Positions 401 through 13,634 are shown, numbered from the stretch's first letter. The stretch is DNA of 13,634 nucleotides from Cellvibrionaceae bacterium (GCA_019634095.1 JAHQVY010000357.1:1-13634); one strand, 5' to 3'. Notes: generated by a model from the sequence alone, not told the origin. Numbers and translations are program-made.

Positions 401-1162
401 ATGGCTAAAACACTGCTAGATCTAAATAATATTTCTAAGTCATTTTTCACTGAGGATATCGAAACCAAAGCGTTGAAAAATATTGACCTGGTGGTAAGCC
501 AAGGTGAGTATGTTTCCCTGACTGGCCCCTCTGGTTGCGGTAAGTCGACATTGTTATCTATCCTCGGCTTGCTCGATGAAGCGAGCGCTGGAGTGTATAA
601 ACTGTGCGATATTGACGTGACAAATTTATCGCGAGATCAACGAGCTGCGGTGCGCAATAGAGAAATTGGTTTTATTTTCCAGTCGTTTAATCTTATCAGT
701 GATTTAACAGTGGAAGAAAATGTGATGTTGCCTCTCACTTACAACAAGGCGCACCAGAATATCGATATGAAAAACCTTGCTAAGGAAATGCTCGCCAAGG
801 TGAATATGGGGCACCGCATCAAGCACTATCCCGCTCAGCTTTCCGGAGGGCAGCAGCAGCGTGTCGCAATTGCGCGCGCGCTGGTCAATCAGCCGTCGTT
901 GATTCTGGCGGATGAACCCACAGGAAACTTAGATAGCGAGAACGCGACGGCTGTACTCGAGATTCTCGACCAGCTTCATCGCGATGGGACAACTATTTGT
1001 ATGGTCACCCATGATTCGCGCTGTGTTGAACGGGTGAATCGTGCGGTTTACATCCTCGACGGTGAAATTTGCCCATCGCCGCCATCGCCGCCATTGTTGC
1101 CAAACACAGGCGCAGCACCCAAGCCGGCAAAGGCTTGCAAACAAGCTGCAACCTTAGATTGA
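401..1162 (+). CDS. ABC transporter ATP-binding protein, MacB/LolD/YbbA-type NBD, with a Pro-rich C-terminal tail
   Basis: Walker A GPSGCGKST, Q-loop, ABC signature LSGGQQQRVAIARAL, Walker B LILADEPTGNLD, H-loop VTHD. A weak AGGA lies 9 nt upstream of the ATG. The last ~28 aa (PSPPSPPLLPNTGAAPKPAKACKQAATLD) are low-complexity and contain a 9-bp tandem duplication. The TGA stop (1160-1162) is 11 nt before the permease start. Confidence 0.92.
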   Translation: MAKTLLDLNNISKSFFTEDIETKALKNIDLVVSQGEYVSLTGPSGCGKSTLLSILGLLDEASAGVYKLCDIDVTNLSRDQRAAVRNREIGFIFQSFNLISDLTVEENVMLPLTYNKAHQNIDMKNLAKEMLAKVNMGHRIKHYPAQLSGGQQQRVAIARALVNQPSLILADEPTGNLDSENATAVLEILDQLHRDGTTICMVTHDSRCVERVNRAVYILDGEICPSPPSPPLLPNTGAAPKPAKACKQAATLD

Positions 1163-1173
1163 GGCGGAGGATA

Positions 1174-3597
1174 ATGATGACGCACTTAATTTTAGATATG
1201 GCTTATTCGCTGCGCTTGTTAAGAAAATCACCCAGCTTTACTGCCTTGTGTGTATTGGTGTTGGCCGGTGGTTTGGCGGTGAGTTTATTTACTTTCGCTT
1301 TTTTGTATACCTTAACTAACAAGCCCCTGCCACTGCCGGATCAAAGTTCGCTGTACCGCGCTTCGCGGGATTGGTATGGCGAAGCCTTTGGTGAAAGCCG
1401 CTATTTGCCCGCCTACGAGGCCGCAGCCATTCGCCAGCAGGCCACGGTATTCAAAGAGCACGGTATCTGGCAAAACAAAACTGTGTACCTGTCTCAAGGT
1501 GAAAATAATTTGGTGGTGTCGGCGGTGCGCAGCACAGCGAATATTTTCGATATCAGTCGCAGCGGGCCATTGCTAGGGCGTTTGTTGCATCCGCGCGACA
1601 GCCAGCCCGACCAAACGCCGGTGGCGGTGATTAGCTATGCCATCTGGCAAAGCCAGTTTGCCGGCAATGACGAGGTGATTGGCAAACAGATTTATATTAA
1701 CGACGTCGCCACAGAAATTGTTGGTGTGATGCCAAAGGGCTACCGTTTTCCGATTTCCCACGATCTTTGGTTGCCCATTTCCCAGCAGCTACTCCACCCA
1801 CTCAGCACTCAGCGCGAAAAAGTGGAGTTGTTTGGCCGTTTAAAACCGGGAGTGTCGCGGGAACAGGCGCAGCAGCAGGTTTTGTCCCTGGCCGAGCAGT
1901 CATTTTCCCAGCGTGCAGAAACCTGGCCAGGCGTGGAGTTGATTCGAGCCAAGGTGGATATTTTTCAGCGTTTTGATGTAAGCACCGAGATGAAAATATT
2001 TTCCTACGCCATGAACATGCTTGCGTTTTTTATTCTGGTTTTGGCGGCAATTAATGTTGGCAATTTATTGTTTGTGCGGGCCATTCAACGCAATAGAGAG
2101 TCGGCCATTCGCATTGCCCTAGGCGCCCCGCAATGGCGCTTGATTAGTCAGTTGATGTGGGAGGGGGTAATAATTACTGTGCTCGGCACAAGCATCGCGG
2201 TGTTTATTTCCAGTGTGCTGCTCCATGCCGTGAATATTTATTTCCGCTCATTAATGAATAACGAACTGGCGTTTTGGTATATCTGGGAAATGGATGTCAC
2301 GGTGTTTAGTGCAGCCCTGGCGTTTGCCGTGGCGACAATTGTCATCGCCTGTTTTTGGCCCGCATTCCGCGCCGCTCGGCAAGATTTTAATAGGGTACTG
2401 CGCGACGGAACCCGCGGCGCCCAAAGCAAACACGCTGGGTTTATGTCGCGCCTTTTAGTCACCCTGCAAATTTCGGCCATTTCCATCATTATGGTGCTCG
2501 GTGCGGTCATCTCCACCAAGGTGCACAATCTTACCGACATGGACCTTGGTTACGATGTGAAAGGAATCAGTTTTTCGATTGTTGAATTGCCCGAGAGCGC
2601 CTACCCCGAAAATACCGACAAATCCTTGTTTTTCGAGCGGCTGCAGCGCGCGCTGTTTAACAGCCAGGCGTTTTCCGGTGCGACGGTGCGCTTTAATCAC
2701 AGCCAATTGCCGGTTGCTGTTGGTGGCGTGGAATATCAGCGCGACGCCGATAAACCCAAGGTACAGGTGTTTAGCATGATTGGTAGCAGCGAATTTATGG
2801 GGCCGACGCTTGTGGCAGGGCGTGAATTAGATAGTCGAGATGGCAGCGGTCGGGCGCCCGCAGTGCTAGTCAGTAGCTCCATGGCCAAGCGTTATTGGCC
2901 CAACGATTCACCCATAGACAAACAAATTGAAGTGAGCTTGCAAGCTAAAGTATTGCGGCTAAATATTGTTGGCGTGGTATCTAACACTACAAATAATCCC
3001 TTCCATAAAAAAGAAAGTTATCACGAAATTTACCTGTCTGGCCTTCAGTTTCCAATGCAGCGGGGCACGGTGTTCTTTGAAAAGACCTCTGCGGGAGTAC
3101 TGGTGGAAGATAATTTTTTTCGCGCCATCAACGCCATCGACAGTAAGCTGGATATTCTCACCATTGAAGACTGGGAGCTGGAAGCTGACGCGATTGGCAA
3201 GATGACGGTGACTTTCCGCGATACCATTGTGATTTGCGGCGTATTTTCACTGATTCTGGCTATGAGCGGTATTTACGGAATCACCGCATTTTCGGTGGAA
3301 AAGCGCTCCCAGGAGGTGGGGGTGAGGCGCGCCCTGGGGGCCACCGACCGTAAAATCATGGGGCTGTTTGTAAGGCAGGGGAGTCGTCAGTTGATTATTG
3401 GTCTGCTGTGTGGGTGCCTGATTTCGGGGCTGATGATGTTTGGCCTCTCCAGCATTATGGCCATTCCCTCTGTGGTTTACCTGGTGATTTACGCGTCGGT
3501 GATAGTCTCTTTGACGTTGATTGTGTTGGCTGCGGTGATTATTCCCGCGCGCCGGGCGGTTAATTTGCTGCCAGCTGTTGCACTGCGTTACGAATAG
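1174..3597 (+). CDS. ABC transporter permease with duplicated FtsX/MacB-type domains (YbbP-like, 807 aa)
   Basis: A GGAGG RBS (1166-1170) precedes ATGATG at 1174. The layout is an N-terminal TM helix, a large periplasmic domain, three TM helices, then a second periplasmic domain and a C-terminal four-helix FtsX bundle, which is the ~800-aa YbbP architecture. The ORF-track start at 1069 is an in-frame upstream extension without an RBS, so 1174 was chosen. Confidence 0.88.
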   Translation: MMTHLILDMAYSLRLLRKSPSFTALCVLVLAGGLAVSLFTFAFLYTLTNKPLPLPDQSSLYRASRDWYGEAFGESRYLPAYEAAAIRQQATVFKEHGIWQNKTVYLSQGENNLVVSAVRSTANIFDISRSGPLLGRLLHPRDSQPDQTPVAVISYAIWQSQFAGNDEVIGKQIYINDVATEIVGVMPKGYRFPISHDLWLPISQQLLHPLSTQREKVELFGRLKPGVSREQAQQQVLSLAEQSFSQRAETWPGVELIRAKVDIFQRFDVSTEMKIFSYAMNMLAFFILVLAAINVGNLLFVRAIQRNRESAIRIALGAPQWRLISQLMWEGVIITVLGTSIAVFISSVLLHAVNIYFRSLMNNELAFWYIWEMDVTVFSAALAFAVATIVIACFWPAFRAARQDFNRVLRDGTRGAQSKHAGFMSRLLVTLQISAISIIMVLGAVISTKVHNLTDMDLGYDVKGISFSIVELPESAYPENTDKSLFFERLQRALFNSQAFSGATVRFNHSQLPVAVGGVEYQRDADKPKVQVFSMIGSSEFMGPTLVAGRELDSRDGSGRAPAVLVSSSMAKRYWPNDSPIDKQIEVSLQAKVLRLNIVGVVSNTTNNPFHKKESYHEIYLSGLQFPMQRGTVFFEKTSAGVLVEDNFFRAINAIDSKLDILTIEDWELEADAIGKMTVTFRDTIVICGVFSLILAMSGIYGITAFSVEKRSQEVGVRRALGATDRKIMGLFVRQGSRQLIIGLLCGCLISGLMMFGLSSIMAIPSVVYLVIYASVIVSLTLIVLAAVIIPARRAVNLLPAVALRYE

Positions 3598-3682
3598 CCT
3601 TGGGGTGTTTCGGCGGCGGCGGGTGGGCCCTGGAATCTCGGCCAATAGGGTTTACTATGTATAAGTTGAGGTTGTTTTTTGA

Positions 3683-3724
3683 TCTATAAAAATTACAGGT
3701 AATATTACCTGTAATTTTTATAGA
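3683..3724. promoter_or_regulatory. 42-bp perfect palindrome TCTATAAAAATTACAGGTAAT|ATTACCTGTAATTTTTATAGA; candidate operator overlapping a promoter, and/or bidirectional terminator hairpin
   Basis: Read directly. Both 21-nt arms are exact reverse complements with no spacer. It ends 33 bp before the ATG of the first gene of the PspA/flotillin block. It contains TATAAA/TTTATA -10-like hexamers, and a possible -35 TTGATC at 3679-3684. The ACAGGTA/TACCTGT stem, flanked by A- and T-runs, could also terminate the upstream permease transcript. Confidence 0.6.
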
Positions 3725-3756
3725 CTGGGGGCACAAACTGGATTACAGTTCTGTGT

Positions 3757-4410
3757 ATGAACAAGAAAACATCCGCACATTATCAGCGAGAGTATCGACG
3801 CCGGTTGCGTGAGCAGGGCTTGGTAAAGAAAGAAGTTTGGATAAACCAAGACCACGCGAAAACCCTGCATCGGCTCGAGTTGCAACTTCGTCAACCCGGC
3901 AGCGAATCGTTGCCTGCTAGCAAAGGCGCCGAGCTGACGCAGGCGGGCCTCCTCGCTACCTGGACCACGCAGAGTCTGTTTGACGCCCTCGCCGCGCAGC
4001 CAGATTTTAGCGCCAATAACACCTTGGAGCTTATCGATGATGCCCAGCCCTCCATACACCTTGATATGAAGCAGTATGGCGACCTGCCGGTTTATTTGGC
4101 GGTGTGTGGCGAGCAAATTATTGTAGAGTCGCTGCTGTGGCCCCTCAGCGAGGTTAAGAACTCGGCCCAATTTAATGAGATGCTTTTAAAAACGCACAAG
4201 TTTATACCGCTTTCCAGCGTCGGTTTGGAAACCTTTGAAAACGGCGCCACTTACTATTATATGTTCGGTGCCCTCAGTGCCGGCTCGTTGCTGGCGAATA
4301 TTATTTTTGAAATTGACTGCCTGGGGAGCAACGTTATTCAAGCCACGCAGGCTTTCTCCGAGTTTTTGAAAAGTGCCATACCGCTCGATACCGATGTGGC
4401 AGCGCCGTGA
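3757..4410 (+). CDS. DUF2170-family protein (E. coli YjfI-like) with a ~80-aa N-terminal basic, ribbon-helix-helix-like extension
   Basis: Residues ~85-217 (…MKQYGDLPVYLAVCGEQIIVESLLWPLS…KFIPLSSVGLETFENGATYYYMFGALSAGSLLANIIFEI…) match the YjfI/DUF2170 pattern as I remember it (…MNDYGDLQINI…MPLSSVGIS…YYIVFGALS…). The N-terminus is KTSAHYQREYRRRLREQG, followed by KEVWINQDHAKTLHRL, which is a beta-strand plus helix of RHH type. It is the first ATG after an in-frame stop. It has no clear SD sequence, which is a weakness. Confidence 0.7.
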   Translation: MNKKTSAHYQREYRRRLREQGLVKKEVWINQDHAKTLHRLELQLRQPGSESLPASKGAELTQAGLLATWTTQSLFDALAAQPDFSANNTLELIDDAQPSIHLDMKQYGDLPVYLAVCGEQIIVESLLWPLSEVKNSAQFNEMLLKTHKFIPLSSVGLETFENGATYYYMFGALSAGSLLANIIFEIDCLGSNVIQATQAFSEFLKSAIPLDTDVAAP

Positions 4411-5117
4411 GTAATTGGGCAAAAGTATTTAGCTTACTCAATGCACACCGGGTGAGTTACGCAGAAAATGTCGAGGAAAACCCGGCCTTTGCGTTGATCA
4501 GCGCCGAGCTTAAGCAATCGCTTAGCCAGTTGAGCACAATGCAACAGGCGTTTAAGGCATTGCAATCGCAGCAGAAATTGGCGCGAGCCAAAGTCAGTCA
4601 ACTGGCCGCAAGTATCGAAGAATACGAAGGGTACGCGGCCAGCGCGCTTAATAAGCAGCAGTCCGAATTAGCGTTAGAAGTGGCGGCGAAAATCGCCGAA
4701 TTCGAAAGCCAACGGAAAACCGAGCAAAACGCCATACAGCAGCGACAAGGCGATTTAAGCTTGCTGCAGCAGAGCATGCCTCTGTGCGAGCAGCATCACA
4801 AACGCTTAAAGCATCAGCTGGACACCCTCAAAGCGGTCGTCAATGTGTTACACGCGCAAGCCACCGTCGCGGTTCGCGAAGGGGGGGAGGTGCCTAAGCA
4901 CCGCACCGCTTTAGATGCCCTAAAAAAAATCCGCGACAAAAATGCGGCCGAGCAGGCCCAGTTGCAAGCGGCGAGCGATTTAGCGGCCGATGTGGATGCG
5001 CAGTCGCTGCGGGAAAAGCTAAAGGCGGCGGGCATTATTGATAGTGGCCACAGCGCCGAAACGGTGCTGCAACGCATAGCGGCGCAAGTGAATGCCGCGA
5101 GTGAACCTGGCAATTAA
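4407..5117 (+). CDS. PspA/IM30-family protein (phage-shock protein A / Vipp1 / ESCRT-III superfamily; YjfJ-like)
   Basis: Its GTG start overlaps the upstream TGA (GTGA), so the two genes are translationally coupled. The N-terminus is NWAKVFSLLNAHRVSYAENVEENPAFALISAELKQSL, which resembles PspA [35 protein letters not shown]. The remainder is a ~230-aa Q/A/E/L-rich coiled coil typical of the family. Confidence 0.75.
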   Translation: MSNWAKVFSLLNAHRVSYAENVEENPAFALISAELKQSLSQLSTMQQAFKALQSQQKLARAKVSQLAASIEEYEGYAASALNKQQSELALEVAAKIAEFESQRKTEQNAIQQRQGDLSLLQQSMPLCEQHHKRLKHQLDTLKAVVNVLHAQATVAVREGGEVPKHRTALDALKKIRDKNAAEQAQLQAASDLAADVDAQSLREKLKAAGIIDSGHSAETVLQRIAAQVNAASEPGN

Positions 5118-5158
5118 AGCCGATAATTAAAACCGATAATTAAAGCCGGCAATTAAAC
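5107..5158. repeat. Four imperfect tandem copies of a 12-13-nt unit C(C/G)G(A/G)(T/C)AATTAAA(G/A)C spanning the PspA-like stop codon and the intergenic region
   Basis: Read directly: ctggcaattaaagc / cgataattaaaac / cgataattaaagc / cggcaattaaac. The first unit encodes the C-terminal PGN residues and the stop codon. Confidence 0.55.
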
Positions 5159-5175
5159 TTAAGGGAGTCAAACTT

Positions 5176-5820
5176 ATGGAAACATTTTTAGCAACCATTA
5201 CTGCGTTTCCAACTGTAATTTTTACCAGTTTATTTATTTTTTGTATTTTTTATTGGCTAATGGCACTTATCGGTTTGGTGGATTTAGACGTTCCCGGTGC
5301 GGAGGTGCCTGATGCCGCTGGTGATAGTATGAGTAGCCTCAGCGCTTTTACCGGGTTAATGGTAAAGCTCGGCCTGCAAGGGGTGCCGTTTCCGCTAACG
5401 CTGTCGCTTATTACTGTAATGGGGTGGGCCTGTTGTTATTTTTCATGTTTATTGTTGCTGCCATTTATTGCTACGGGGCTTACTAAATATTTATTGGGTA
5501 TTCCGGTTTTTTTGCTGTCATTTTTTGCCGCTATTTATATTACTTCAAAAATCATTAATCCCTTGCGGCCAATGTTTCTCTCTGCGGAGCAAAGAGCCGA
5601 ACACACGCTGATTGGTAAAACTGCCACGGTGCGCAGCTCGCGCGTTGACAGCGAATTTGGCGAGGCTAATGTAAAAAGCGCCGGTGCCGAACTCATTATT
5701 AACGTGCGCGCTTGCCAGGAGGCGGTTTTTGAAAAAGGCGATCGAGTGGTTTTGCTGGAACATGTGAAGCCGGGTAATTTTTACAAAGTTATTTCTGAAG
5801 AAGAATTTAACCTAAACTAA
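5176..5820 (+). CDS. YqiJ-like inner-membrane protein with a C-terminal NfeD-type OB-fold domain (flotillin partner)
   Basis: RBS AAGGGAG with 8-nt spacing. The protein has ~4 N-terminal TM helices, then LIGKTATVRSS…GEANVKSAGAELIINVRAC…FEKGDRVVLLEHVKPGNFYKV, an NfeD/YqiJ-type beta-barrel tail. It sits immediately upstream of an SPFH/flotillin gene, the canonical NfeD-SPFH operon arrangement. Confidence 0.7.
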   Translation: METFLATITAFPTVIFTSLFIFCIFYWLMALIGLVDLDVPGAEVPDAAGDSMSSLSAFTGLMVKLGLQGVPFPLTLSLITVMGWACCYFSCLLLLPFIATGLTKYLLGIPVFLLSFFAAIYITSKIINPLRPMFLSAEQRAEHTLIGKTATVRSSRVDSEFGEANVKSAGAELIINVRACQEAVFEKGDRVVLLEHVKPGNFYKVISEEEFNLN

Positions 5821-5832
5821 TTTGTTGGATTG

Positions 5833-5861
5833 TTGCGAGGATGTTCGCAGTAGATTCTAAT
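5833..5861 (+). promoter_or_regulatory. Candidate sigma70-type promoter TTGCGA-N17-TCTAAT upstream of the flotillin gene
   Basis: Hexamers read directly: -35 at 5833-5838 and -10 at 5856-5861, about 44 bp upstream of the GTG start. It lies inside the segment that recurs inverted at 13486-13525. It is weak by itself and was not scored. Confidence 0.3.
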
Positions 5862-5879
5862 GGTTAATTTAGGTTTAAA
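5840..5879 (-). repeat. Inverted copy of the segment at 13486-13525 (15/15 + 18/25 matching positions)
   Basis: The reverse complement of 5840-5879 is ttaaacctaaattaa+ccattagaatctactgcgaacatcc. The segment at 13486-13525 is ttaaacctaaattaa+tcagttggatctactgcggacgccc. Confidence 0.45.
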
Positions 5880-5905
5880 CACGCTATAGGGTAAGGAGAA
5901 TTGCT

Positions 5906-7876
5906 GTGAACCAAGTTGATTATATTGCTTATTTAACCGGGATTGCTGTAGTAATTGGTGCGCTTTTTGTGATTGCATTGGTTATTATTTCGATATTTAA
6001 AGCGTTTTATGTGAAGGTAGAGCAGGGTGTTGCTTTGATAAAAAATGATACCGGTAATACACCCAAGGTGGTGTTTACCGGCACCTGGATTATTCCGGTG
6101 ATTCATAAAAAAGAGTTGATGCGTATTTCCCTGATTACCATGGAAGTGGACCGTCGCGGCAAAGACGGTTTGATTTGTGCCGACAATATGCGAGCCGATA
6201 TTACCGTGGCTTTTTACTTGCGGGTGAATGAAACCCCCGAGGATGTGCTGCAAGTCGCCAAATCTTTGGGTGCCTCGCGGGCCTCGGATAAAGATGCAGT
6301 GCACGAGTTGTTCAATGCTAAATTTTCTGAAGCCCTAAAAACAGTGGGCAAGCAAATAGAATTTGTAAAGCTATTTGAAGATAGGCAAACCTTCCGTGAA
6401 AAAATTAAACGCGTGATTGGCGATGATCTCAACGGTTATATTCTCGAAGATGTGGCGATTGATTACCTGGAGCAAACACCCAAATCGTCCCTCGATCCCA
6501 GTAATATTCTCGATTCCCAAGGCATTCGCAAAATTACCGAACTTACCGCAACCCAGAATGTGCGCACCAACGAGTTAGAGCGCGATGAAGAGTTGGCGAT
6601 TAAAAAGAAGAATGTCGAAACGACTGAAGCCAGGCTGGAGTTAGAGCGGCAACAAGCCGATGCCGAGGCGCGTCAGCAACGGGAGATTCTGAGTATCCAA
6701 GCCAGAGAGGAAGCCGAAACCAAGCGCATTCAAGAGGAAGAGCGCAAAAAATCTGAGGAAACCGCCATTGCGGTTGAGCAAGAATTGTCGGTGCAGCGAG
6801 AAAATCAACAGCGAGAAGTGGAAGTGGCGCAGCAAAATCGACAGCGCGCAGTGGCCATTGAAGTAGAGCGGGTGAGCAAAGCGCGCGATTTAGAAATTGT
6901 CGCCCGGGAGCGCGAGGTGGAATTGCAGCGAATTGGCGCAGAAAAAGATATCGAAAAAGAGCGCAAAGAAATTGCCAATGTTATTCGCGAGCGGGTAACC
7001 GTGGATAAATCTGTGGCGGTGGAAGAGGAAAAAATTAAAGAAGTGCGCGAAATCTCTGAAGCCGATCGCGCCAAACAAGCCGCAGTATTGCAAGCCGAGG
7101 CCGATGCCGAAACCGAAAAGGTGAAGCAGGTGCAGCAGGCTGAAGCAGAGGGCTTAGCCGCGAAATACCGCGCTGAAGAAGTGGTAACGATGGCTCAAGC
7201 TAAGTTGGAAGCGGCGGCAAAAGATGCCGATGCCAAGAAAAAACTCGCCGAAGGGGTGGAGGCGGAAGAGGCGGCCATGGGAATCGCCGAAGCCAAGGTC
7301 AGAGAAGCCCAGGCGATGGCCTTAGAAAAAGAAGGTTTGGCGGAAGCCAAAGTGATTACTTCCAAAGGCGAAGCCAATGCCACAGCCTTGGAAAAAGCCG
7401 GCACTGCCGAAGCCAATGTGCTGGCATTTAAAGGTGAGGCGCAAGCCAAGGCGGTGCGTGACACCGGGTTATCGGAAGCCGACGTAAGCCGGGAAAAACT
7501 CCGCGCGGAAGCGGAAGGGCTAGTCGAAAAATTCGAGGCGATGAGCAGCTTGAGCGGCGATGCACGCGACCACGAAGAATTTCGTATGTCTTTGGAAACG
7601 GCCTTGGAAGAGGCCTTGGCTTCCATAGAAGCGGGCAAAGTGGTTGCCAAGGAAAATGCCGAAGTACTGGCTACCGCTTTGCAAAATTCCAATATCGATA
7701 TTGTTGGTGGGGAAGAGCATTTCTTTAACAACTTCGCTAAATCTTTGTCGATTGGCAAAGCCATAGATGGTTTGGCAGCAAAGAGCGGCACTGTGGAAGC
7801 CTTGCTGCATAAATTTATGTCGATGCAAAAACCTTCAGAAAAAAGCAATGGTGCGGCTGTTGATCCCCAGCACTAG
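5906..7876 (+). CDS. SPFH/band-7 flotillin-like protein (YqiK-like), 656 aa
   Basis: GTG start with an AAGGAG RBS (5893-5898). It has an N-terminal TM helix and an SPFH domain (KVVFTGTWIIPVIHKKELMRISLITMEV…DNMRADITVAFYLRVNE…). This is followed by ~350 aa of E/A/K/R/Q-rich coiled coil with flotillin-type EA repeats (AEAKV…AEANV…AEADV). The antisense Ala/Ser-rich ORF 7195-7848 is its compositional shadow. Confidence 0.88.
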   Translation: MNQVDYIAYLTGIAVVIGALFVIALVIISIFKAFYVKVEQGVALIKNDTGNTPKVVFTGTWIIPVIHKKELMRISLITMEVDRRGKDGLICADNMRADITVAFYLRVNETPEDVLQVAKSLGASRASDKDAVHELFNAKFSEALKTVGKQIEFVKLFEDRQTFREKIKRVIGDDLNGYILEDVAIDYLEQTPKSSLDPSNILDSQGIRKITELTATQNVRTNELERDEELAIKKKNVETTEARLELERQQADAEARQQREILSIQAREEAETKRIQEEERKKSEETAIAVEQELSVQRENQQREVEVAQQNRQRAVAIEVERVSKARDLEIVAREREVELQRIGAEKDIEKERKEIANVIRERVTVDKSVAVEEEKIKEVREISEADRAKQAAVLQAEADAETEKVKQVQQAEAEGLAAKYRAEEVVTMAQAKLEAAAKDADAKKKLAEGVEAEEAAMGIAEAKVREAQAMALEKEGLAEAKVITSKGEANATALEKAGTAEANVLAFKGEAQAKAVRDTGLSEADVSREKLRAEAEGLVEKFEAMSSLSGDARDHEEFRMSLETALEEALASIEAGKVVAKENAEVLATALQNSNIDIVGGEEHFFNNFAKSLSIGKAIDGLAAKSGTVEALLHKFMSMQKPSEKSNGAAVDPQH

Positions 7877-7952
7877 GCATACCTCAGATAGCCACTGTGT
7901 TACCGGCTGATAAAACCTTAGGGTTCAGTGATTAGGAGAAAAAGGAATACGT

Positions 7953-10900
7953 ATGGCTGATACCGCTTCTGAACCACCCAGCTCCATAGACAGCGCTGTT
8001 GCTGAAGGTGGCGCCTACGATGTTTTACGCAGGCGCCTAAACGAGCAGGGCCAAGCATTAAATGAACAAGTTAAGAACATTAATAGCGCCAGACTCGCCG
8101 AGTTTGGCCAGTCTGATCTTAAAATAGCCACCCGCACCCGAGTGCGCACCGCAAATAACTGCGTTGCGCGGGATATTGTGCAAGTGGGTGAGCTGTTGCT
8201 GTTTTCTTACAACGTATTTATTGGCTTAAAAAAAGCCACGCAAATTAACGATGTGTTTGCGGTATTTAAATTGCAGCACAGTGGCGATCAATACGAGTTA
8301 CTGAGTGTCGATATCGATACCAGTTTTCTCAACGATAGTCGCTTTCAGAAAGATTTTAACGAGCTGTACCACTACTATAAAAAAACCCACCTCAAAGAAA
8401 CCCGCGTGGTTAACGGGCTCTTGCTGATGGGCTTTCAAATTAGTGAGCGCGAGGAAGATATCCGCGTATTTCGCTGGTCGCTATCTGCCGATGGCACTGT
8501 GCTTAAGTACATCGATAATCGTGGCGAGCGCGACTTAGTATTGCCGCCAAGCTTTGATTTTGACTGGCAAGAAGCCACCCGAGAAGACACGGTGCAAGGG
8601 CGTTATCCCCATGTGAATATTCTCGATACGCTGTTCGTCGAAACCATTAACGGCGATTTGACCATAAAAATAGAGGACAATACCGAAGATGGTCAGGGCA
8701 TTTACCGAGAGGCGGTGGAGGATGGCAACCAGAGTATTGATGACGCCGCATTTTGCTACGCCCGCTTGGGCGGCTTAATTTTACTTAAGGTGCTGCCTTA
8801 CAAAGAAAAACACTATCGCCATTTTGTTTACAATACCCTCACCGAACAGGTGCTGCGTCTGGATGCGATTGCCAGCTCCTGCGTGCAACTGCCGGAAGAT
8901 CACGGCATTATTTTTCCGGGCGGTTATTTTTTGCAAGATGGTGAGCACAAAGACTTTGCCGGCGATGTTGCCGGTATGCGCTTTCAACGCAAAATTCGCT
9001 CTCCCAATGGCGAGGATTTTCTCTATGTTTTTTATGAGCCGATTAGCGGAACCTCGGTACTGCTAGCTTATAATTTAATAGAAAAACGCCTGCAAAACCC
9101 CTTGTACTGTCACGGTTACGCCCTGGGAGACGATGGCAAAATTGTGATGTTTGTCGCCGAAGAGGAAGCGACGCGGGTGCACCCGATGCAAATTTGGCAA
9201 ACTCCCTTTGTCGGCGATGACTACGCCAGTCAACAGCCGAAGAGCCAGTCCTTTTTTAGCCGTATTGGCAACGCTTCCCTGGTTCGGGGCATATCCGATG
9301 TGTTTAGTATTTGCCGATCGGTAAATAATCAGTCGGTAACATTAAAAGTGTATGAAGAGTTGGCTGGGCAAAGCAAAAAAATCTTTGATAACCATTATTG
9401 GATTGATAGCGATGAATGCCACGGGATTGCCAATTTAATTCGCAGTATTGCGGAAACCGCCGAGTTAACCATCGACGAGTTTCAAAAAGTTCAGAGTATT
9501 CAGCAGCAGTCAAACCAAGCTCTGGAAAAGGCCAAACAACAGCAGCAAGCACTGTTGTTAGAGATACGCAACAGCGCCTGGCAACAAGCCTTAGACTATG
9601 TTAACGCCCTGGGTGACTTAAAAAAGTTACGCGGCCATTTGGCCAGTATTCGCCAGTTGCGCTATATCGATGTGGCGCAAATTGCGCTGCTAGAAAGCGA
9701 ACTGTTGCAAAGCCAAGAGGATTTAAATACGCGTACCGCCGAGTTTCTCAGCCAAGATAAGGCCTTTGAGCCCTACCAAGAAACCATTGCTAATTTGGAT
9801 AAGGCGGTGGAAAAAGCCGACAGCAACATAAGCCTGTCGCCGTTGTTGGAACAAATGGATCAGCTCGCTGAGGGGCTGGATATGTTAACCGATATGATGT
9901 CGACATTGCAGGTGGCGGATGTCAACGTGCGCACCCAGATTATCGATGCCACCACCTCGGTGTATGCCAAGCTTAACCAGAGTCGCGCCCTGGCAAAACA
10001 CAAGCAAAAGAACTTGGGCTCGAAAGAGGCCACGGCGCAATTCGCCGCGCAATTTAAGTTGTTTTCGCAAAGTGTCACCAATGCCTTGGGTTTGGCGGCA
10101 ACGCCCGAAGAGTGCGACAAACAGATGTCGCGCCTGCTGGTGCAGCTTGAAGATTTGGAAAGTCAATTTGGTGAATTTGAACAGTTTCTCGGCGATATTA
10201 TTAGTAAACGCGAAGAAGTGTACGAAAGTTTTGAAGCGCATAAGCAGCAATTACTGGATGCACAACAACGTAAAGCCCAGAATATTTTCGATGCCGCTGA
10301 ACGGGCACTGGCGAGCATTGAACGCCGAGTGAATAAGTTTAAAGACATGGATGCGCTCAACACCTATCTGGGTTCCGATGCCCTGGTATTAAAAATTAAC
10401 GACTTTGTGGAACAGCTTAGGCAACTCAATGCCTCGGTGCAGGCCGAAGATGTGAGCAGTCGTTTAAAAGGGATTAAAGATCAGGGCTTGCGCCTGCTGC
10501 GCGATAAAGCCGAGATCTACGAAGGCGAGGGCAATGTGATTAAGCTGGGCCCGCGGCATAAATTTAGCGTAAATACCCAAAGCTTAGATTTAACCATTAT
10601 TCCACGGCAGCAGGATCTTTACCTACATTTAACGGGCACCGACTTTTTTGAGACTATCAACGATTCCCCCTTAAGTCAGTTAAGCGCGTATTGGGACGTT
10701 GCCCACGAAAGTGAAAGTCCATTTTTTTGCCGTGCAGAGTTTTTGGCGGCCTCGGTTATGCAGCAGGCGCAAACTGCGCCCCAGCAACCCTTAATGGACC
10801 TGCTTAAATCGGAAAACGCCTTGCTGGAGCGGGTGCGAGATTACGCGGCGCCGCGTTACAAAGAAGGTTATACAAAGGGCATACACGATCACGACGCCGC

Positions 10901-13259
10901 AAAAATTCTCAGCCAGCTGATCCCCGCCCTGGCGCAGGCTGGGCATTTAAAGTACGACCCGCTATGTCGGGGCTTGGCCCAGGTTTTTTGGGCAAATATC
11001 GAAAAGATTGCCTCGCAACTGGCGAGTTTGCGACTCAGCTACAGTACCTGGCCGGAACGGGCACAATCGGCGGCAAGGCTGGCGAATTTATTGTCCAGTT
11101 TGGAGGCGAAACAGCAGTTGGCCACAGAAATTGAAGTCGCGCTTACTGAATTTGTTAAACATCACCCAATTGTTGCCACGCCTCTGGTGTTAAAACGCAG
11201 TGCCGCTTACTTGGTGGATGAACTGGGCAGCGAAACTATCCGTTTTGTGTGCAGCAAACATGGAATGGAACTCGCCGAAGCGCTGAAGCGCACCTTAGAC
11301 CAAGACAGCTGGCGCCATTTTCAAGTGGCCTTAGAGCGCATGTTAGGCTGGCCGGCGGAACGCTGGCAGCTGAGTGAAAGTTGGTTTAAAGCCTTAGTTG
11401 AGAATAAGTCGCTGGCTCACCTACAACACTATATTCCCGAAGCGGTGGCAATTGTTAACACCGAAAACCGCTTAGAGCGCGAACTGTCCCAGGCGGAATT
11501 GGAGCTGCACATCGACGGTTTACTCAGCGAGCACTCGCGTATTGAAAACCGCTGCTTGGCTTTGTCTATCGACGATTTTCTTACCCGCTATTCAGACCAT
11601 TGCGGCGAATTTATTCCCGAATATCATCGCTACCAAGCACTGCGCAAACAGACGATTCAAGAAAAGCGCGAACAATTGCGTTTAGAAGAGCTGAAACCGC
11701 GCCCGCTGAGCTCGTTTGTACGCAACCGTTTAATTAATGAAAGCTACCTGCCGATTATTGGCGATAATTTAGCGAAACAAATGGGCACCATTGGCGATAA
11801 CAAGCGCAGCGATTTAATGGGCTTGTTAATGATGATATCGCCGCCGGGTTACGGGAAAACCACTTTGATGGAATATGTGGCCGACCGCTTGGGTTTGATT
11901 TTTATGAAAATCAACTGCCCCAGCCTGGGGCATGATGTGCTGTCGCTCGACCCCAGCCAAGCGCCCAACGCGACGGCGCAACAAGAGTTAAAAAAGCTTA
12001 ATCTGGCGCTGGAAATGGGCAATAACGTAATGTTGTACCTCGATGATATACAGCATACCGACCCAGAATTTCTGCAAAAATTTATCTCTTTGTGTGATGG
12101 CACGCGGCGTATTGAGGGAGTGTGGCAAGGCCAATCGCGCACCTATGATATGCGCGGTAAAAAGTTTTGTGTGGTGATGGCGGGTAACCCCTACACTGAA
12201 TCTGGCGAGCTGTTTAAGGTACCCGATATGTTAGCCAACCGCGCCGACATTTATAATTTGGGGGATATTTTAGGGGGGATGGATGAGCAATTCGCCCTGA
12301 GCTATATCGAAAATAGTTTAACCTCTAACCCGGTGTTGGCGCCGCTGGCCACTCGCGATATGCAAGACACGTATTTATTAATTGCTATGGCCGAGGGCAA
12401 AGAGGTGGCCAGCTCAGATTTAAAACATCAATACAGTGCCGCGGAAGTTAAAGAGATTTGCGATGTGCTGAAAAAACTATTTGTGATTCGCGATATTGTG
12501 CTAAAAATTAATCAGCAGTATATCGAGTCTGCCGCCCAAGATGAGCAGAATCGGGTTGAACCGCCGTTTAAGCTCCAGGGCAGCTACCGCAATATGAATA
12601 AAATGGCAGAGAAGGTAGCGGCGGTGCTGAACGCGGCGGAATTGCAGCAGCTGATTGACGATCATTATCGCGGTGAATCGCAATTGCTGACCCAGGGTTC
12701 TGAAGAAAACCTCCTTAAGTTGGCCGAATTGCGCGGCACTCTTAGCCATGCGCAACAACAACGCTGGCAGGACATTAAACAGCGCTTTGTGCGCAACCAA
12801 AAACTGGGGGGTAAAAATAGCGATGCTGCAAGCCAAGTGGTGGCGCAGCTGGGGGACATTGCCGGTGTTTTAACGGCGTTACAGCACAATATGCAGGCGG
12901 GTGTGGAAAACGCTTTGCATACACCACAGCCCGCCGCGAAAAGCGATACCGACAGCGTTATTCTCGGCGCTTTAGACAAAATTCAAGGCTCTATTAGCGC
13001 ATCGTTGGCGAAGGTGCAAGTGGTGAATCAACCGGTGCCGGGTATGGATAAAGTGCTGCGCGTATTGGCGAACACCCTTGAGCAAAGTATTTTTCCGCTG
13101 ATGAAAAACATGGATAAAAAGTTTGAAATAGATTTGAGTACTCACAATAAAATAAGCGATCTGTTTCAACAGCTTAAAAATTTAGAAATGCAAATAAAAA
13201 TGGAAAACGCAGAGAGTACGGTGAGTGTGAGAGAAAACGTGGTGAAGAATAAACCTTAA
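7953..13259 (+). CDS. Giant (1768 aa) multidomain protein with a C-terminal-third AAA+ ATPase module; uncharacterised family
   Basis: A single uninterrupted ORF, with an AGGAG/AAGGAA RBS region upstream of the ATG. AAA+ motifs: Walker A SPPGYGKTTL (aa ~1296-1305, nt ~11838-11867), Walker B VMLYLDDIQH (aa ~1360-1367), and sensor-1-like VVMAGNP (aa ~1407-1413). The N-terminal ~450 aa are mixed alpha/beta. Residues ~500-850 are Q/L/E-rich coiled coil. Residues ~850-1290 are helical. About 350 aa follow the ATPase. There is no sigma54-activator GAFTGA motif and no N-terminal P-loop. Confidence 0.85.
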   Translation: MADTASEPPSSIDSAVAEGGAYDVLRRRLNEQGQALNEQVKNINSARLAEFGQSDLKIATRTRVRTANNCVARDIVQVGELLLFSYNVFIGLKKATQINDVFAVFKLQHSGDQYELLSVDIDTSFLNDSRFQKDFNELYHYYKKTHLKETRVVNGLLLMGFQISEREEDIRVFRWSLSADGTVLKYIDNRGERDLVLPPSFDFDWQEATREDTVQGRYPHVNILDTLFVETINGDLTIKIEDNTEDGQGIYREAVEDGNQSIDDAAFCYARLGGLILLKVLPYKEKHYRHFVYNTLTEQVLRLDAIASSCVQLPEDHGIIFPGGYFLQDGEHKDFAGDVAGMRFQRKIRSPNGEDFLYVFYEPISGTSVLLAYNLIEKRLQNPLYCHGYALGDDGKIVMFVAEEEATRVHPMQIWQTPFVGDDYASQQPKSQSFFSRIGNASLVRGISDVFSICRSVNNQSVTLKVYEELAGQSKKIFDNHYWIDSDECHGIANLIRSIAETAELTIDEFQKVQSIQQQSNQALEKAKQQQQALLLEIRNSAWQQALDYVNALGDLKKLRGHLASIRQLRYIDVAQIALLESELLQSQEDLNTRTAEFLSQDKAFEPYQETIANLDKAVEKADSNISLSPLLEQMDQLAEGLDMLTDMMSTLQVADVNVRTQIIDATTSVYAKLNQSRALAKHKQKNLGSKEATAQFAAQFKLFSQSVTNALGLAATPEECDKQMSRLLVQLEDLESQFGEFEQFLGDIISKREEVYESFEAHKQQLLDAQQRKAQNIFDAAERALASIERRVNKFKDMDALNTYLGSDALVLKINDFVEQLRQLNASVQAEDVSSRLKGIKDQGLRLLRDKAEIYEGEGNVIKLGPRHKFSVNTQSLDLTIIPRQQDLYLHLTGTDFFETINDSPLSQLSAYWDVAHESESPFFCRAEFLAASVMQQAQTAPQQPLMDLLKSENALLERVRDYAAPRYKEGYTKGIHDHDAAKILSQLIPALAQAGHLKYDPLCRGLAQVFWANIEKIASQLASLRLSYSTWPERAQSAARLANLLSSLEAKQQLATEIEVALTEFVKHHPIVATPLVLKRSAAYLVDELGSETIRFVCSKHGMELAEALKRTLDQDSWRHFQVALERMLGWPAERWQLSESWFKALVENKSLAHLQHYIPEAVAIVNTENRLERELSQAELELHIDGLLSEHSRIENRCLALSIDDFLTRYSDHCGEFIPEYHRYQALRKQTIQEKREQLRLEELKPRPLSSFVRNRLINESYLPIIGDNLAKQMGTIGDNKRSDLMGLLMMISPPGYGKTTLMEYVADRLGLIFMKINCPSLGHDVLSLDPSQAPNATAQQELKKLNLALEMGNNVMLYLDDIQHTDPEFLQKFISLCDGTRRIEGVWQGQSRTYDMRGKKFCVVMAGNPYTESGELFKVPDMLANRADIYNLGDILGGMDEQFALSYIENSLTSNPVLAPLATRDMQDTYLLIAMAEGKEVASSDLKHQYSAAEVKEICDVLKKLFVIRDIVLKINQQYIESAAQDEQNRVEPPFKLQGSYRNMNKMAEKVAAVLNAAELQQLIDDHYRGESQLLTQGSEENLLKLAELRGTLSHAQQQRWQDIKQRFVRNQKLGGKNSDAASQVVAQLGDIAGVLTALQHNMQAGVENALHTPQPAAKSDTDSVILGALDKIQGSISASLAKVQVVNQPVPGMDKVLRVLANTLEQSIFPLMKNMDKKFEIDLSTHNKISDLFQQLKNLEMQIKMENAESTVSVRENVVKNKP

Positions 13260-13274
13260 GGTGAAGCGCACTTA

Positions 13275-13468
13275 ATATATACCCAAAACACTTGTGATTT
13301 AGGTCTCATGAGCACGACCCTAAGTGCCCTTGGCGGTGTTGCTCCGCCTTAAATAGAATGGCTATTCTGCGTTGCCCTATTACCTCACATCCCTGTGAGT
13401 ACCGCCTTGCCAAGAACAAAAATTGGCGCACGCCTAACACCTAAATCTCAAACGCTTTGGGTATATAT
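13275..13468 (+). mobile_element. MITE-like non-coding repeat element, copy B (~194 bp) with perfect 10-bp terminal inverted repeats ATATATACCC...GGGTATATAT
   Basis: About 90% identical to 160-348. The termini 13275-13284 and 13459-13468 are exact reverse complements. The GGCGG-tgttgct-CCGCC hairpin is conserved (13332-13348). In the second hairpin, CTCACA-tccc-TGTGAG (13384-13399), the stem is preserved but the loop differs from copy A. Confidence 0.6.
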
Positions 13469-13485
13469 CCGCTGGCGGTGCAGGC

Positions 13486-13525
13486 TTAAACCTAAATTAA
13501 TCAGTTGGATCTACTGCGGACGCCC
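13486..13525 (+). repeat. Partner of the inverted repeat at 5840-5879
   Basis: See feature 5840-5879. It lies just downstream of MITE copy B, presumably in the upstream region of the next gene, which is outside the window. Confidence 0.45.
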
Positions 13526-13634
13526 AATGAATTGAAATTAAAGCGTTTTTTCAGTTTTGCGGCTGCACCCGTAGAGTGACTACGAATTTGCCTCAAAACT
13601 TAAAAAATTCACTCTAATTTCAGCCCCTTGAACG

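Follow-up and report, generated by a model that had tools for sequence, protein, structure and literature searches.

The 13,634-bp stretch analyzed here (Cellvibrionaceae bacterium GCA_019634095.1, JAHQVY010000357.1), referred to throughout as the window, is an entire contig of a metagenome-assembled genome, and five of the seven plus-strand open reading frames (ORFs) called along it make up the Cellvibrionaceae orthologue of the bac operon of Pseudomonas aeruginosa, a class of operon that has already been described. The block encodes a DUF2170 protein (BacA), a PspA-family protein (BacB), a YqiJ-like protein (BacC), a flotillin-type protein (BacD), and a giant ATPase (BacE). We consider it likely that this is an envelope-stress operon in which BacE acts on an assembly of BacC and BacD, and in which the N-terminal domain of BacA represses the operon that encodes it. 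What is new is how the regulation is read, at odds with the sigma-54 control proposed in the literature; the window itself presents a variant operator arrangement.

The bac orthologue and its conserved gene order

The original prediction, made from the window alone, did not recognize the five-gene block as a described system, and here the literature had already overtaken it. In P. aeruginosa, PA3729-PA3732 were named the "biofilm-associated cluster," and the PspA-like PA3731, which is induced by osmotic shock, is required for biofilms to form and for swarming, the production of rhamnolipids, and virulence; biofilm growth is a further inducing condition (Macé et al. 2008, PMC2587700). Six co-transcribed genes, bacA-F, were later defined by reverse transcription-PCR in P. 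aeruginosa PA14, and the structure of BacA was solved (Wallart et al. 2024, PMC10948618). The window carries the first five genes of bacABCDEF (PA3732-PA3727, or PA14_16140-16200) in the same order. Ravi et al. 2024 (PMC11237479) describe an operon class that joins CesT/YjfI-PspA to YqiJ/YuaF, flotillin, and a novel AAA+ protein, and the domain content given there is identical to that of the five-gene block.

ORF and repeat searches returned every coordinate of the block as originally predicted, including a 4-nt overlap between bacA and bacB (GTGA, in which the bacB GTG start and the bacA stop overlap), gaps of 58 nt (bacB-bacC), 85 nt (bacC-bacD), and 76 nt (bacD-bacE), and a perfect 42-bp palindrome. 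The overlap is found in the window, whereas bacA and bacB are separated elsewhere. Shine-Dalgarno sequences are strong before bacC, bacD, and bacE, and none was found before bacA on inspection of the window. A unit of ∼13 nt, (A/G)CCG(A/G)(T/C)AATTAAA, stands three times in tandem in the bacB-bacC spacer (5118 to 5160), right behind the bacB stop. In Escherichia coli, the homologous pairs yjfI-yjfJ and yqiJ-yqiK are separate loci without a giant ATPase, as had been stated; in K-12 they lie at 4.41 and 3.19 Mb, 1.2 Mb apart.

We sought relatives of the giant protein in one genome per GTDB species, which gave at least 582 confirmed relatives among the 600 pattern matches listed, and the best 80 of these (at least 49% identity), taken with 10-kb flanks, make up our census set, drawn mostly from Gammaproteobacteria, with some Betaproteobacteria, one Zetaproteobacterium, and Longimicrobium. 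Neighboring genes were scored by tblastn with the window proteins, and the counts cover the 68 loci in which the sequence 5' of the giant gene extends for at least 4.6 kb. YqiJ-like and flotillin genes lie directly 5' of the giant gene in all 68, and the complete A-B-C-D-giant order of the window recurs in 51 (the Pseudomonas paraeruginosa locus, L032, and 50 others). Another 15 carry C-D-giant only, a search of the ∼10 kb upstream having found neither a PspA nor a DUF2170 gene, and A or B is missing singly in 2. Because this order is conserved, the adjacency is not fortuitous and the bac block is a real conserved unit; chance adjacency of the five genes was rejected on the census, and the linkage on which the original prediction had staked its reading is borne out. 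The invariant core is flotillin-YqiJ-ATPase, to which the DUF2170-PspA pair is an add-on: since the C-D pair is present in 68/68 loci and the DUF2170-PspA pair is absent from 15, the constant partner of the ATPase is the flotillin pair and not PspA. The census reproduces a statement of Ravi et al. 2024 (PMC11237479) that abbreviated flotillin-YqiJ-AAA+ operons are more widespread.

The gene 3' of the giant gene differs by lineage, being a rhomboid, a PLD protein, another gene, or none. A rhomboid protease (six transmembrane segments, PF01694, 69 bits) occupies this position in 23 of the 80 loci (e.g., L002:15274-15837), often with an ATGA overlap with the stop of the giant gene, and a rhomboid link to the giant ATPase was not found in the accessible parts of the bac and flotillin literature covered. 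The P. aeruginosa group has a PLD/HKD protein there (bacF; L032:15243-15950), and some Alteromonadaceae have a Zn-ribbon protein. P. aeruginosa thus has a sixth gene of the PLD type, whereas in the window no ORF starts in positions 13260 to 13634, the 375 nt left on the contig.

Proteins of the operon and the partner of the giant ATPase

BacA consists of a basic N-terminal domain (residues 1 to 46; nt 3757 to 3894), a variable linker, and a DUF2170/CesT-like domain (residues 68 to 204; nt 3958 to 4368) that resembles the ExsC type. It scores 153.5 bits against Pfam DUF2170 and 273.9 bits (residues 1 to 207) against the NCBIfam model NF050185, "biofilm formation regulator BacA," just below the 300-bit cutoff, and it matches E. 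coli YjfI at E 1e-23. Its sole solved relative is PDB 8q8o (P. aeruginosa PA14_16140; E 1.5e-33), which aligns from residue 68 only; the CesT-like domain is 46% identical to 8q8o, and the BacA model matches that structure with a TM-score of 0.93. BacB belongs to the PspA_IM30 family (PF04012; 63.8 bits, cutoff 33.9), and its alignment with E. coli YjfJ starts at residue 1 and spans the full length (E 2e-11).

BacC has several transmembrane passes and a beta-rich C-terminal domain. By BLASTP it matches E. coli YqiJ at E 2e-4, and a profile of 19 BacC orthologues aligns to YqiJ in hhalign with a probability of 85% (E 6e-6, 142 columns); YqiJ_N is matched by 7 of the 19. The window protein has no Pfam match, NfeD (PF01957) included, even at E 10, NfeD is matched by 1 of the 19 orthologues at E 0.29, and the profile has no match among PDB sequences. 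On these comparisons BacC is a YqiJ/YuaF-type protein, a remote NfeD relative that stands outside the Pfam NfeD family; the NfeD relation follows from the description of YqiJ/YuaF "NfeD2" proteins as minimally conserved NfeD relatives (PMC2636767). The NfeD assignment of the original prediction therefore keeps its remote YqiJ/YuaF branch and loses the Pfam family, and its PspA, DUF2170, and SPFH assignments all stood.

BacD comprises an N-terminal transmembrane segment, an SPFH/Band_7 domain (residues 37 to 185; nt 6014 to 6460), an extended coiled coil rich in Ala, Glu, and Lys, and a C-terminal part of the flotillin type. BLASTP aligns it to E. coli YqiK across 462 residues at 29% identity (E 2e-46). 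At full length it has no Pfam match and only a weak one to NCBIfam FloT (E 2e-6), for which coiled-coil bias filtering is the probable reason; the N-terminal 298 residues scanned alone reach 28.0 bits against Band_7 (cutoff 23.6).

BacE, which has an NCBI entry at 100% identity, carries DUF3686 (652 bits; residues 36 to 482, nt 8058 to 9398), DUF7902 (residues 603 to 686, nt 9759 to 10010), a long helical region, and then a single AAA+ module (residues 1290 to 1415, nt 11820 to 12197) with Walker A GYGKTT and Walker B LYLDD, in keeping with its original AAA+ assignment. The database name "DNA repair ATPase" echoes the Pfam description of DUF3686, and the membrane-protein neighborhood gives it no backing; a literature search on DUF3686 returned nothing relevant. 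Neither the C-terminal 568 residues nor the whole-protein profile found a relative among PDB sequences. The AlphaFold model of the AAA+ module is poor (predicted local distance difference test [pLDDT] score of 58, from a shallow alignment of 6 sequences), and a Foldseek search with it put the MoxR-type NorQ/CbbQ on top, with Rubisco activase (Rca), PspF, and p97 also listed (E ∼3e-4, TM-score 0.25 to 0.35). At the level of the model the AAA+ fold is confirmed, and the ranking leaves the clade unfixed; with low confidence, BacE leans to MoxR-type ATPases (NorQ, CbbQ) and probably falls outside the classic AAA clade.

These results bear on whether the operon encodes an ESCRT-III/Vps4-like machine, the organizing logic first proposed for it, in which BacE would disassemble or remodel BacB polymers with flotillin as a platform. 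PspA/IM30 proteins share the ESCRT-III fold (cited in PMC10948618 and PMC11237479), Ravi et al. (PMC11237479) propose ATP-dependent membrane remodeling for PspA-AAA+ associations, and 51 of the 68 loci have both BacB and the giant gene. As in ESCRT-III/Vps4 and the archaeal CdvB/CdvC, a gene for an ESCRT-III-fold polymer likewise stands beside an AAA+ gene. However, the 15 loci that keep YqiJ-flotillin-giant have no PspA or DUF2170 gene found in the ∼10 kb upstream, a Pfam scan of BacE gave no MIT or Vps4 C-terminal domain match, no PDB sequence relative was found, and the top fold matches of the poor model are MoxR-type. In contrast to Vps4, BacE is without an MIT domain, is six times larger, probably belongs to a nonclassic clade, and is linked mainly to flotillin rather than to PspA. 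We therefore regard such a machine as unlikely and the Vps4/ESCRT-III analogy as weak for the main logic, and we prefer the reading in which BacE serves the BacC/BacD assembly.

A role as a dedicated antiphage defense system has very little to recommend it, and we give it hardly any probability. PA3728-PA3732 were upregulated in all phage-infected P. aeruginosa samples (PMC12041424), but PADLOC returned only coiled-coil noise for BacB (E ≥1.8e-4) and no match for the other four proteins, and a general envelope-stress response is what osmotic stress and biofilm growth as inducers would fit (PMC2587700).

Upstream sites, promoter, and N-terminal domain of BacA

The N-terminal domain is the most conserved part of BacA across genera, with the consensus MxxKSSAHYQREYRRRLREQGLVKKEVWILPENAxxLxxxEKxLR. 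Differences per site at codon positions 1, 2, and 3 are 0.28, 0.17, and 0.56, a pattern that marks it as coding sequence. The gene models of PAO1 and PA14 and the crystallized protein (8q8o) begin with MTEARVW..., at an internal Met behind a GGAGA (seen in L032:5722-5900), so that the domain is absent from the solved BacA; in P. paraeruginosa the conserved 46-residue N-terminal domain and its promoter, both with the window's N-terminal conservation and promoter geometry, lie upstream of this Met. The window BacA has no internal Met at the position of the PAO1/PA14 start, and it is possible that Pseudomonas makes two BacA isoforms. A profile search of 1.8 billion representative proteins also found the domain as complete stand-alone proteins of 46 to 75 aa (P0313, P0331, P0348, P0317, and others), which could be antitoxin-like regulators. 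The MazE-like family PF11455 is weakly matched by 19 of 28 BacA N-terminal domains and by some of the stand-alone proteins, and it is reasonable to take the domain for a small dimeric DNA-binding module.

An inverted-repeat search of the related loci found a conserved 10-mer upstream of bacA, TTACATGTAA, with the form TYACATGTRA in Pseudomonas (the L032 sites are a paired TTACATGTRA). Sites of this type occur within 200 nt upstream of bacA in all 50 loci whose BacA has the N-terminal domain, with at least two copies in 49, and in none of the 22 loci without such a bacA. Their usual offsets from the bacA ATG are −50 and −27, with an occasional third at about −75; there are 107 in 10 kb of sequence upstream of bacA and 31 in 1.22 Mb elsewhere in the loci, a 423-fold difference in density, and the CATG core is invariant in 107/107. 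Neither E. coli YjfI (133 aa) nor the short DUF2170 proteins encoded at L065, L076, and L047 have the domain. No site stands at the yjfI locus or at any point of L065 and L076, and L047 yields a single match, its position unchecked. A literature search for the motif returned nothing relevant, and neither the N-terminal domain nor the sites nor a leaderless promoter was found in the accessible parts of the bac-operon literature covered.

In the window, the core of the palindrome (arms of 21 and 21 nt, 100% complementary, spacer 0) consists of two adjacent variants of this site, TTACAGGTAA (3693 to 3702) and TTACCTGTAA (3705 to 3714), 12 bp apart. At 4^-21 per position across 13.6 kb, a rough calculation puts the chance expectation of such a palindrome at ∼3e-9. 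The operator-like sites of the window differ from those of P. aeruginosa in being adjacent, in both standing upstream of the −35 box, and in reading CAGG/CCTG where the core is otherwise CATG. In the closest relative (L083, with a BacA of 89% identity), TTACAGGTAA precedes the canonical TTACATGTAA (L083:28-51), and because its flanks are nonpalindromic, the perfect 42-bp symmetry is, on this comparison, private to the window's lineage. The sites of the insect-gut genera Gilliamella and Frischella are also adjacent, 13 bp apart. BacA of the window and of L083 reads WINQDH where nearly all others read WILPEN, and this change together with the CAGG/CCTG core could reflect co-evolution of protein and operator. 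Five loci from Lysobacterales and relatives (L044, L048, L064, L073, and L080) have a variant dyad, TTTCATGTAAG...CTTACATGAAA, upstream of bacA and a diverged BacA N-terminal domain (e.g., SSTEYVREFRERMR), so that here, too, site and domain have changed in concert.

We see very little chance that the palindrome is unrelated to the operon, as a terminator of the ABC-transporter genes, a repetitive extragenic element, or a global-regulator site. It stands 86 nt past the permease stop and could fold into a hairpin, but the stem is AT-rich and loopless with no T-run after it, the same 10-mer sites precede bacA in 50 loci that differ in the genes upstream, linkage to the ABC ATPase and the ADOP/MacB-FtsX duplicated permease is seen in 0/80 loci, and the sites track the BacA N-terminal domain exactly. 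No other upstream neighbor of bacA is conserved either, any one being common to at most 11 of the 50 loci. A terminator role was rejected on the census and motif data.

The sites are set in a recurrent promoter frame, which in related loci runs site, −35, a second site inside the spacer, −10, 6 to 7 nt, ATG. In the window, −35 TAGACT (3721 to 3726) is followed by a 17-nt spacer, −10 TACAGT (3744 to 3749), 7 nt, and the ATG; a generic promoter scan overlooked it, the two boxes together matching at 8/12 positions only. L083 has the identical −35 box and −10 TAAAGT. A TAnnnT hexamer 5 to 9 nt before the bacA ATG is present in 41 of 43 loci (at 6 to 7 nt in 39) and is joined by a −35 box (at least 4/6 matches, 16 to 19 nt upstream of the −10) in 36 of them, against rates of 21% (−10) and 4.5% (−10 and −35) in shuffled sequence. 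Transcription is predicted to start at or beside the bacA start codon and to give a leaderless mRNA, a prediction drawn from the distance between −10 and ATG that fits the missing Shine-Dalgarno sequence.

According to PMC2587700 and PMC10948618, a sigma-54 −24/−12 site has been proposed upstream of the annotated PA3732 start. The operon could on that basis be a sigma-54 (RpoN) Psp-like regulon in which BacA acts through protein-protein contacts only, like ExsC, whose type its CesT-like C-terminal domain resembles. We find this highly unlikely, since the annotated PA3732 start is the internal Met and the ∼170 nt upstream of it are conserved coding sequence, inside which the published site may lie. 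A search for TGGCAC-N5-TTGC (GG core, at most 4 mismatches) found no site in window positions 3598 to 3960, the candidates present in L032 are all without the GC core, no enhancer-binding protein gene is conserved near bacA in related loci, and the sigma-70 promoter is conserved in 36 to 41 of 43 loci. Sigma-54 control was rejected on the motif and census data, and no activator, PspB, or PspC gene is among the window ORFs by Pfam and NCBIfam scans.

Table 1. Positions of genes and regulatory features in the window
Feature	Position	Strand	Basis
ABC ATPase gene	401-1162	+	ORF call
ADOP/MacB-type permease gene	1069-3597	+	ORF call
Perfect palindrome, 42 bp	3683-3724	.	Inverted-repeat search
Predicted sigma-70 promoter	3721-3749	+	−35/−10 geometry shared with related loci
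bacA orthologue, 217 aa	3757-4410	+	DUF2170, NF050185, 8q8o
bacB orthologue, 236 aa, PspA/IM30 family (YjfJ-type)	4407-5117	+	Pfam, YjfJ BLASTP
bacC orthologue, 214 aa, YqiJ/YuaF type	5176-5820	+	BLASTP, hhalign
bacD orthologue, 656 aa, flotillin-type SPFH	5906-7876	+	Band_7, YqiK BLASTP, weak FloT
bacE orthologue, 1768 aa, AAA+	7953-13259	+	Pfam DUF3686 + DUF7902 + AAA

The TTG start listed for the permease would place 94 nt of its gene inside the ATPase gene, and the real start probably lies farther downstream. Two imperfect inverted repeats lie 3' of the giant gene (13264 to 13331 and 13546 to 13607); the second has T- and A-runs on its flanks and might terminate transcription in both directions. 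No match came from Rfam and tRNA scans of the whole window, positions 13260 to 13634 included.

A possible partner switch and its meaning

We propose that BacD, as a flotillin-type SPFH scaffold, and BacC, as a YqiJ/NfeD-like protein, would form a membrane assembly, and that BacE, their invariant partner, would spend ATP to assemble, remodel, or clear it. BacB, an ESCRT-III-fold polymer that may serve in membrane repair, and BacA, a CesT-like chaperone, would be the add-on module. The operon would be read from the sigma-70 promoter as a leaderless bacA mRNA, and the N-terminal domain of BacA would bind TTACATGTAA-type sites (in the window, those of the palindrome core beside the −35 box) and repress it. 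The C-terminal domain would bind BacB, and how strongly the operon is repressed would depend on whether BacB is free or engaged on stressed membrane, in a partner switch analogous to PspA-PspF; a BacA-BacB complex is predicted by AlphaFold (0.98; PMC13092808).

That BacA represses its own operon is something we infer from the upstream sequences, and it fits the reported over-accumulation of the other Bac proteins in a bacA mutant (PMC10948618). Several points weigh on the other side. The mutant is a transposon insertion, and read-out from the transposon could also raise the downstream proteins. For P. aeruginosa, the model in the literature is one of sigma-54 dependence (PMC2587700 and PMC10948618). 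The window sites have a CAGG/CCTG core in place of CATG, and neither of them is in the spacer, both being upstream of the −35 box, which makes the geometry of repression less obvious. All PF11455 matches fall under the family cutoff (best E 1.2e-3), a profile of the N-terminal domain found no solved relative in PDB, and its AlphaFold monomer (helix 6 to 19, loop 20 to 30 containing GLVKKEVWI, helix 31 to 45) has pLDDT scores of 54 to 76. The original prediction had placed a ribbon-helix-helix domain (a beta-alpha-alpha fold whose dimer has a two-stranded ribbon) on the DUF2170 protein; an extra small N-terminal domain is indeed there, but the model is a helix-loop-helix and the family match is the subthreshold MazE-like one, neither of which establishes that fold. 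The target of BacE is read from gene linkage only, and the reach of the census is limited to the best 80 of at least 582 relatives.

A more specific form of the regulatory reading seems to us evenly balanced between right and wrong. BacA would be a two-part autorepressor, with its N-terminal domain on paired TTACATGTAA operators straddling the −35 box and spacer and its CesT-like domain reporting the state of BacB; the regulation of the family would have been misread, the proposed mechanism replacing sigma-54, and the window palindrome would be a recently symmetrized, co-evolved variant.

Parts of this logic have counterparts in known systems. It would share with the E. coli PspF-PspA partner switch a regulator that reads whether a PspA-type protein is free, and with MazE-like autorepressors a small basic N-terminal domain on palindromic sites of its own promoter. 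Unlike PspF, which is a sigma-54 activator, BacA would join repressor and CesT-like chaperone in one protein and act at a sigma-70 promoter, and in contrast to MazE-type antitoxin systems, the bac operon has no toxin gene. Bacillus subtilis offers FloT-YuaF as a flotillin/NfeD2 pair and, in PspA-YdjGHI, the SPFH protein YdjI, which links PspA to the membrane, but unlike the window, these loci are without an AAA+ ATPase and without a CesT-like protein.

The operon joins three membrane-shaping protein families and is linked to biofilm, virulence, and the phage response in P. aeruginosa. The grouping of the giant ATPase with flotillin and YqiJ makes flotillin assemblies its first candidate substrate, ahead of PspA. 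The self-repression model brings in a conserved operator and a BacA N-terminal domain that were omitted from the published structural and promoter work, and it supplies a defined DNA probe. If it is true, BacA would represent a new "chaperone-fused repressor" type of partner switch that couples membrane damage to transcription.

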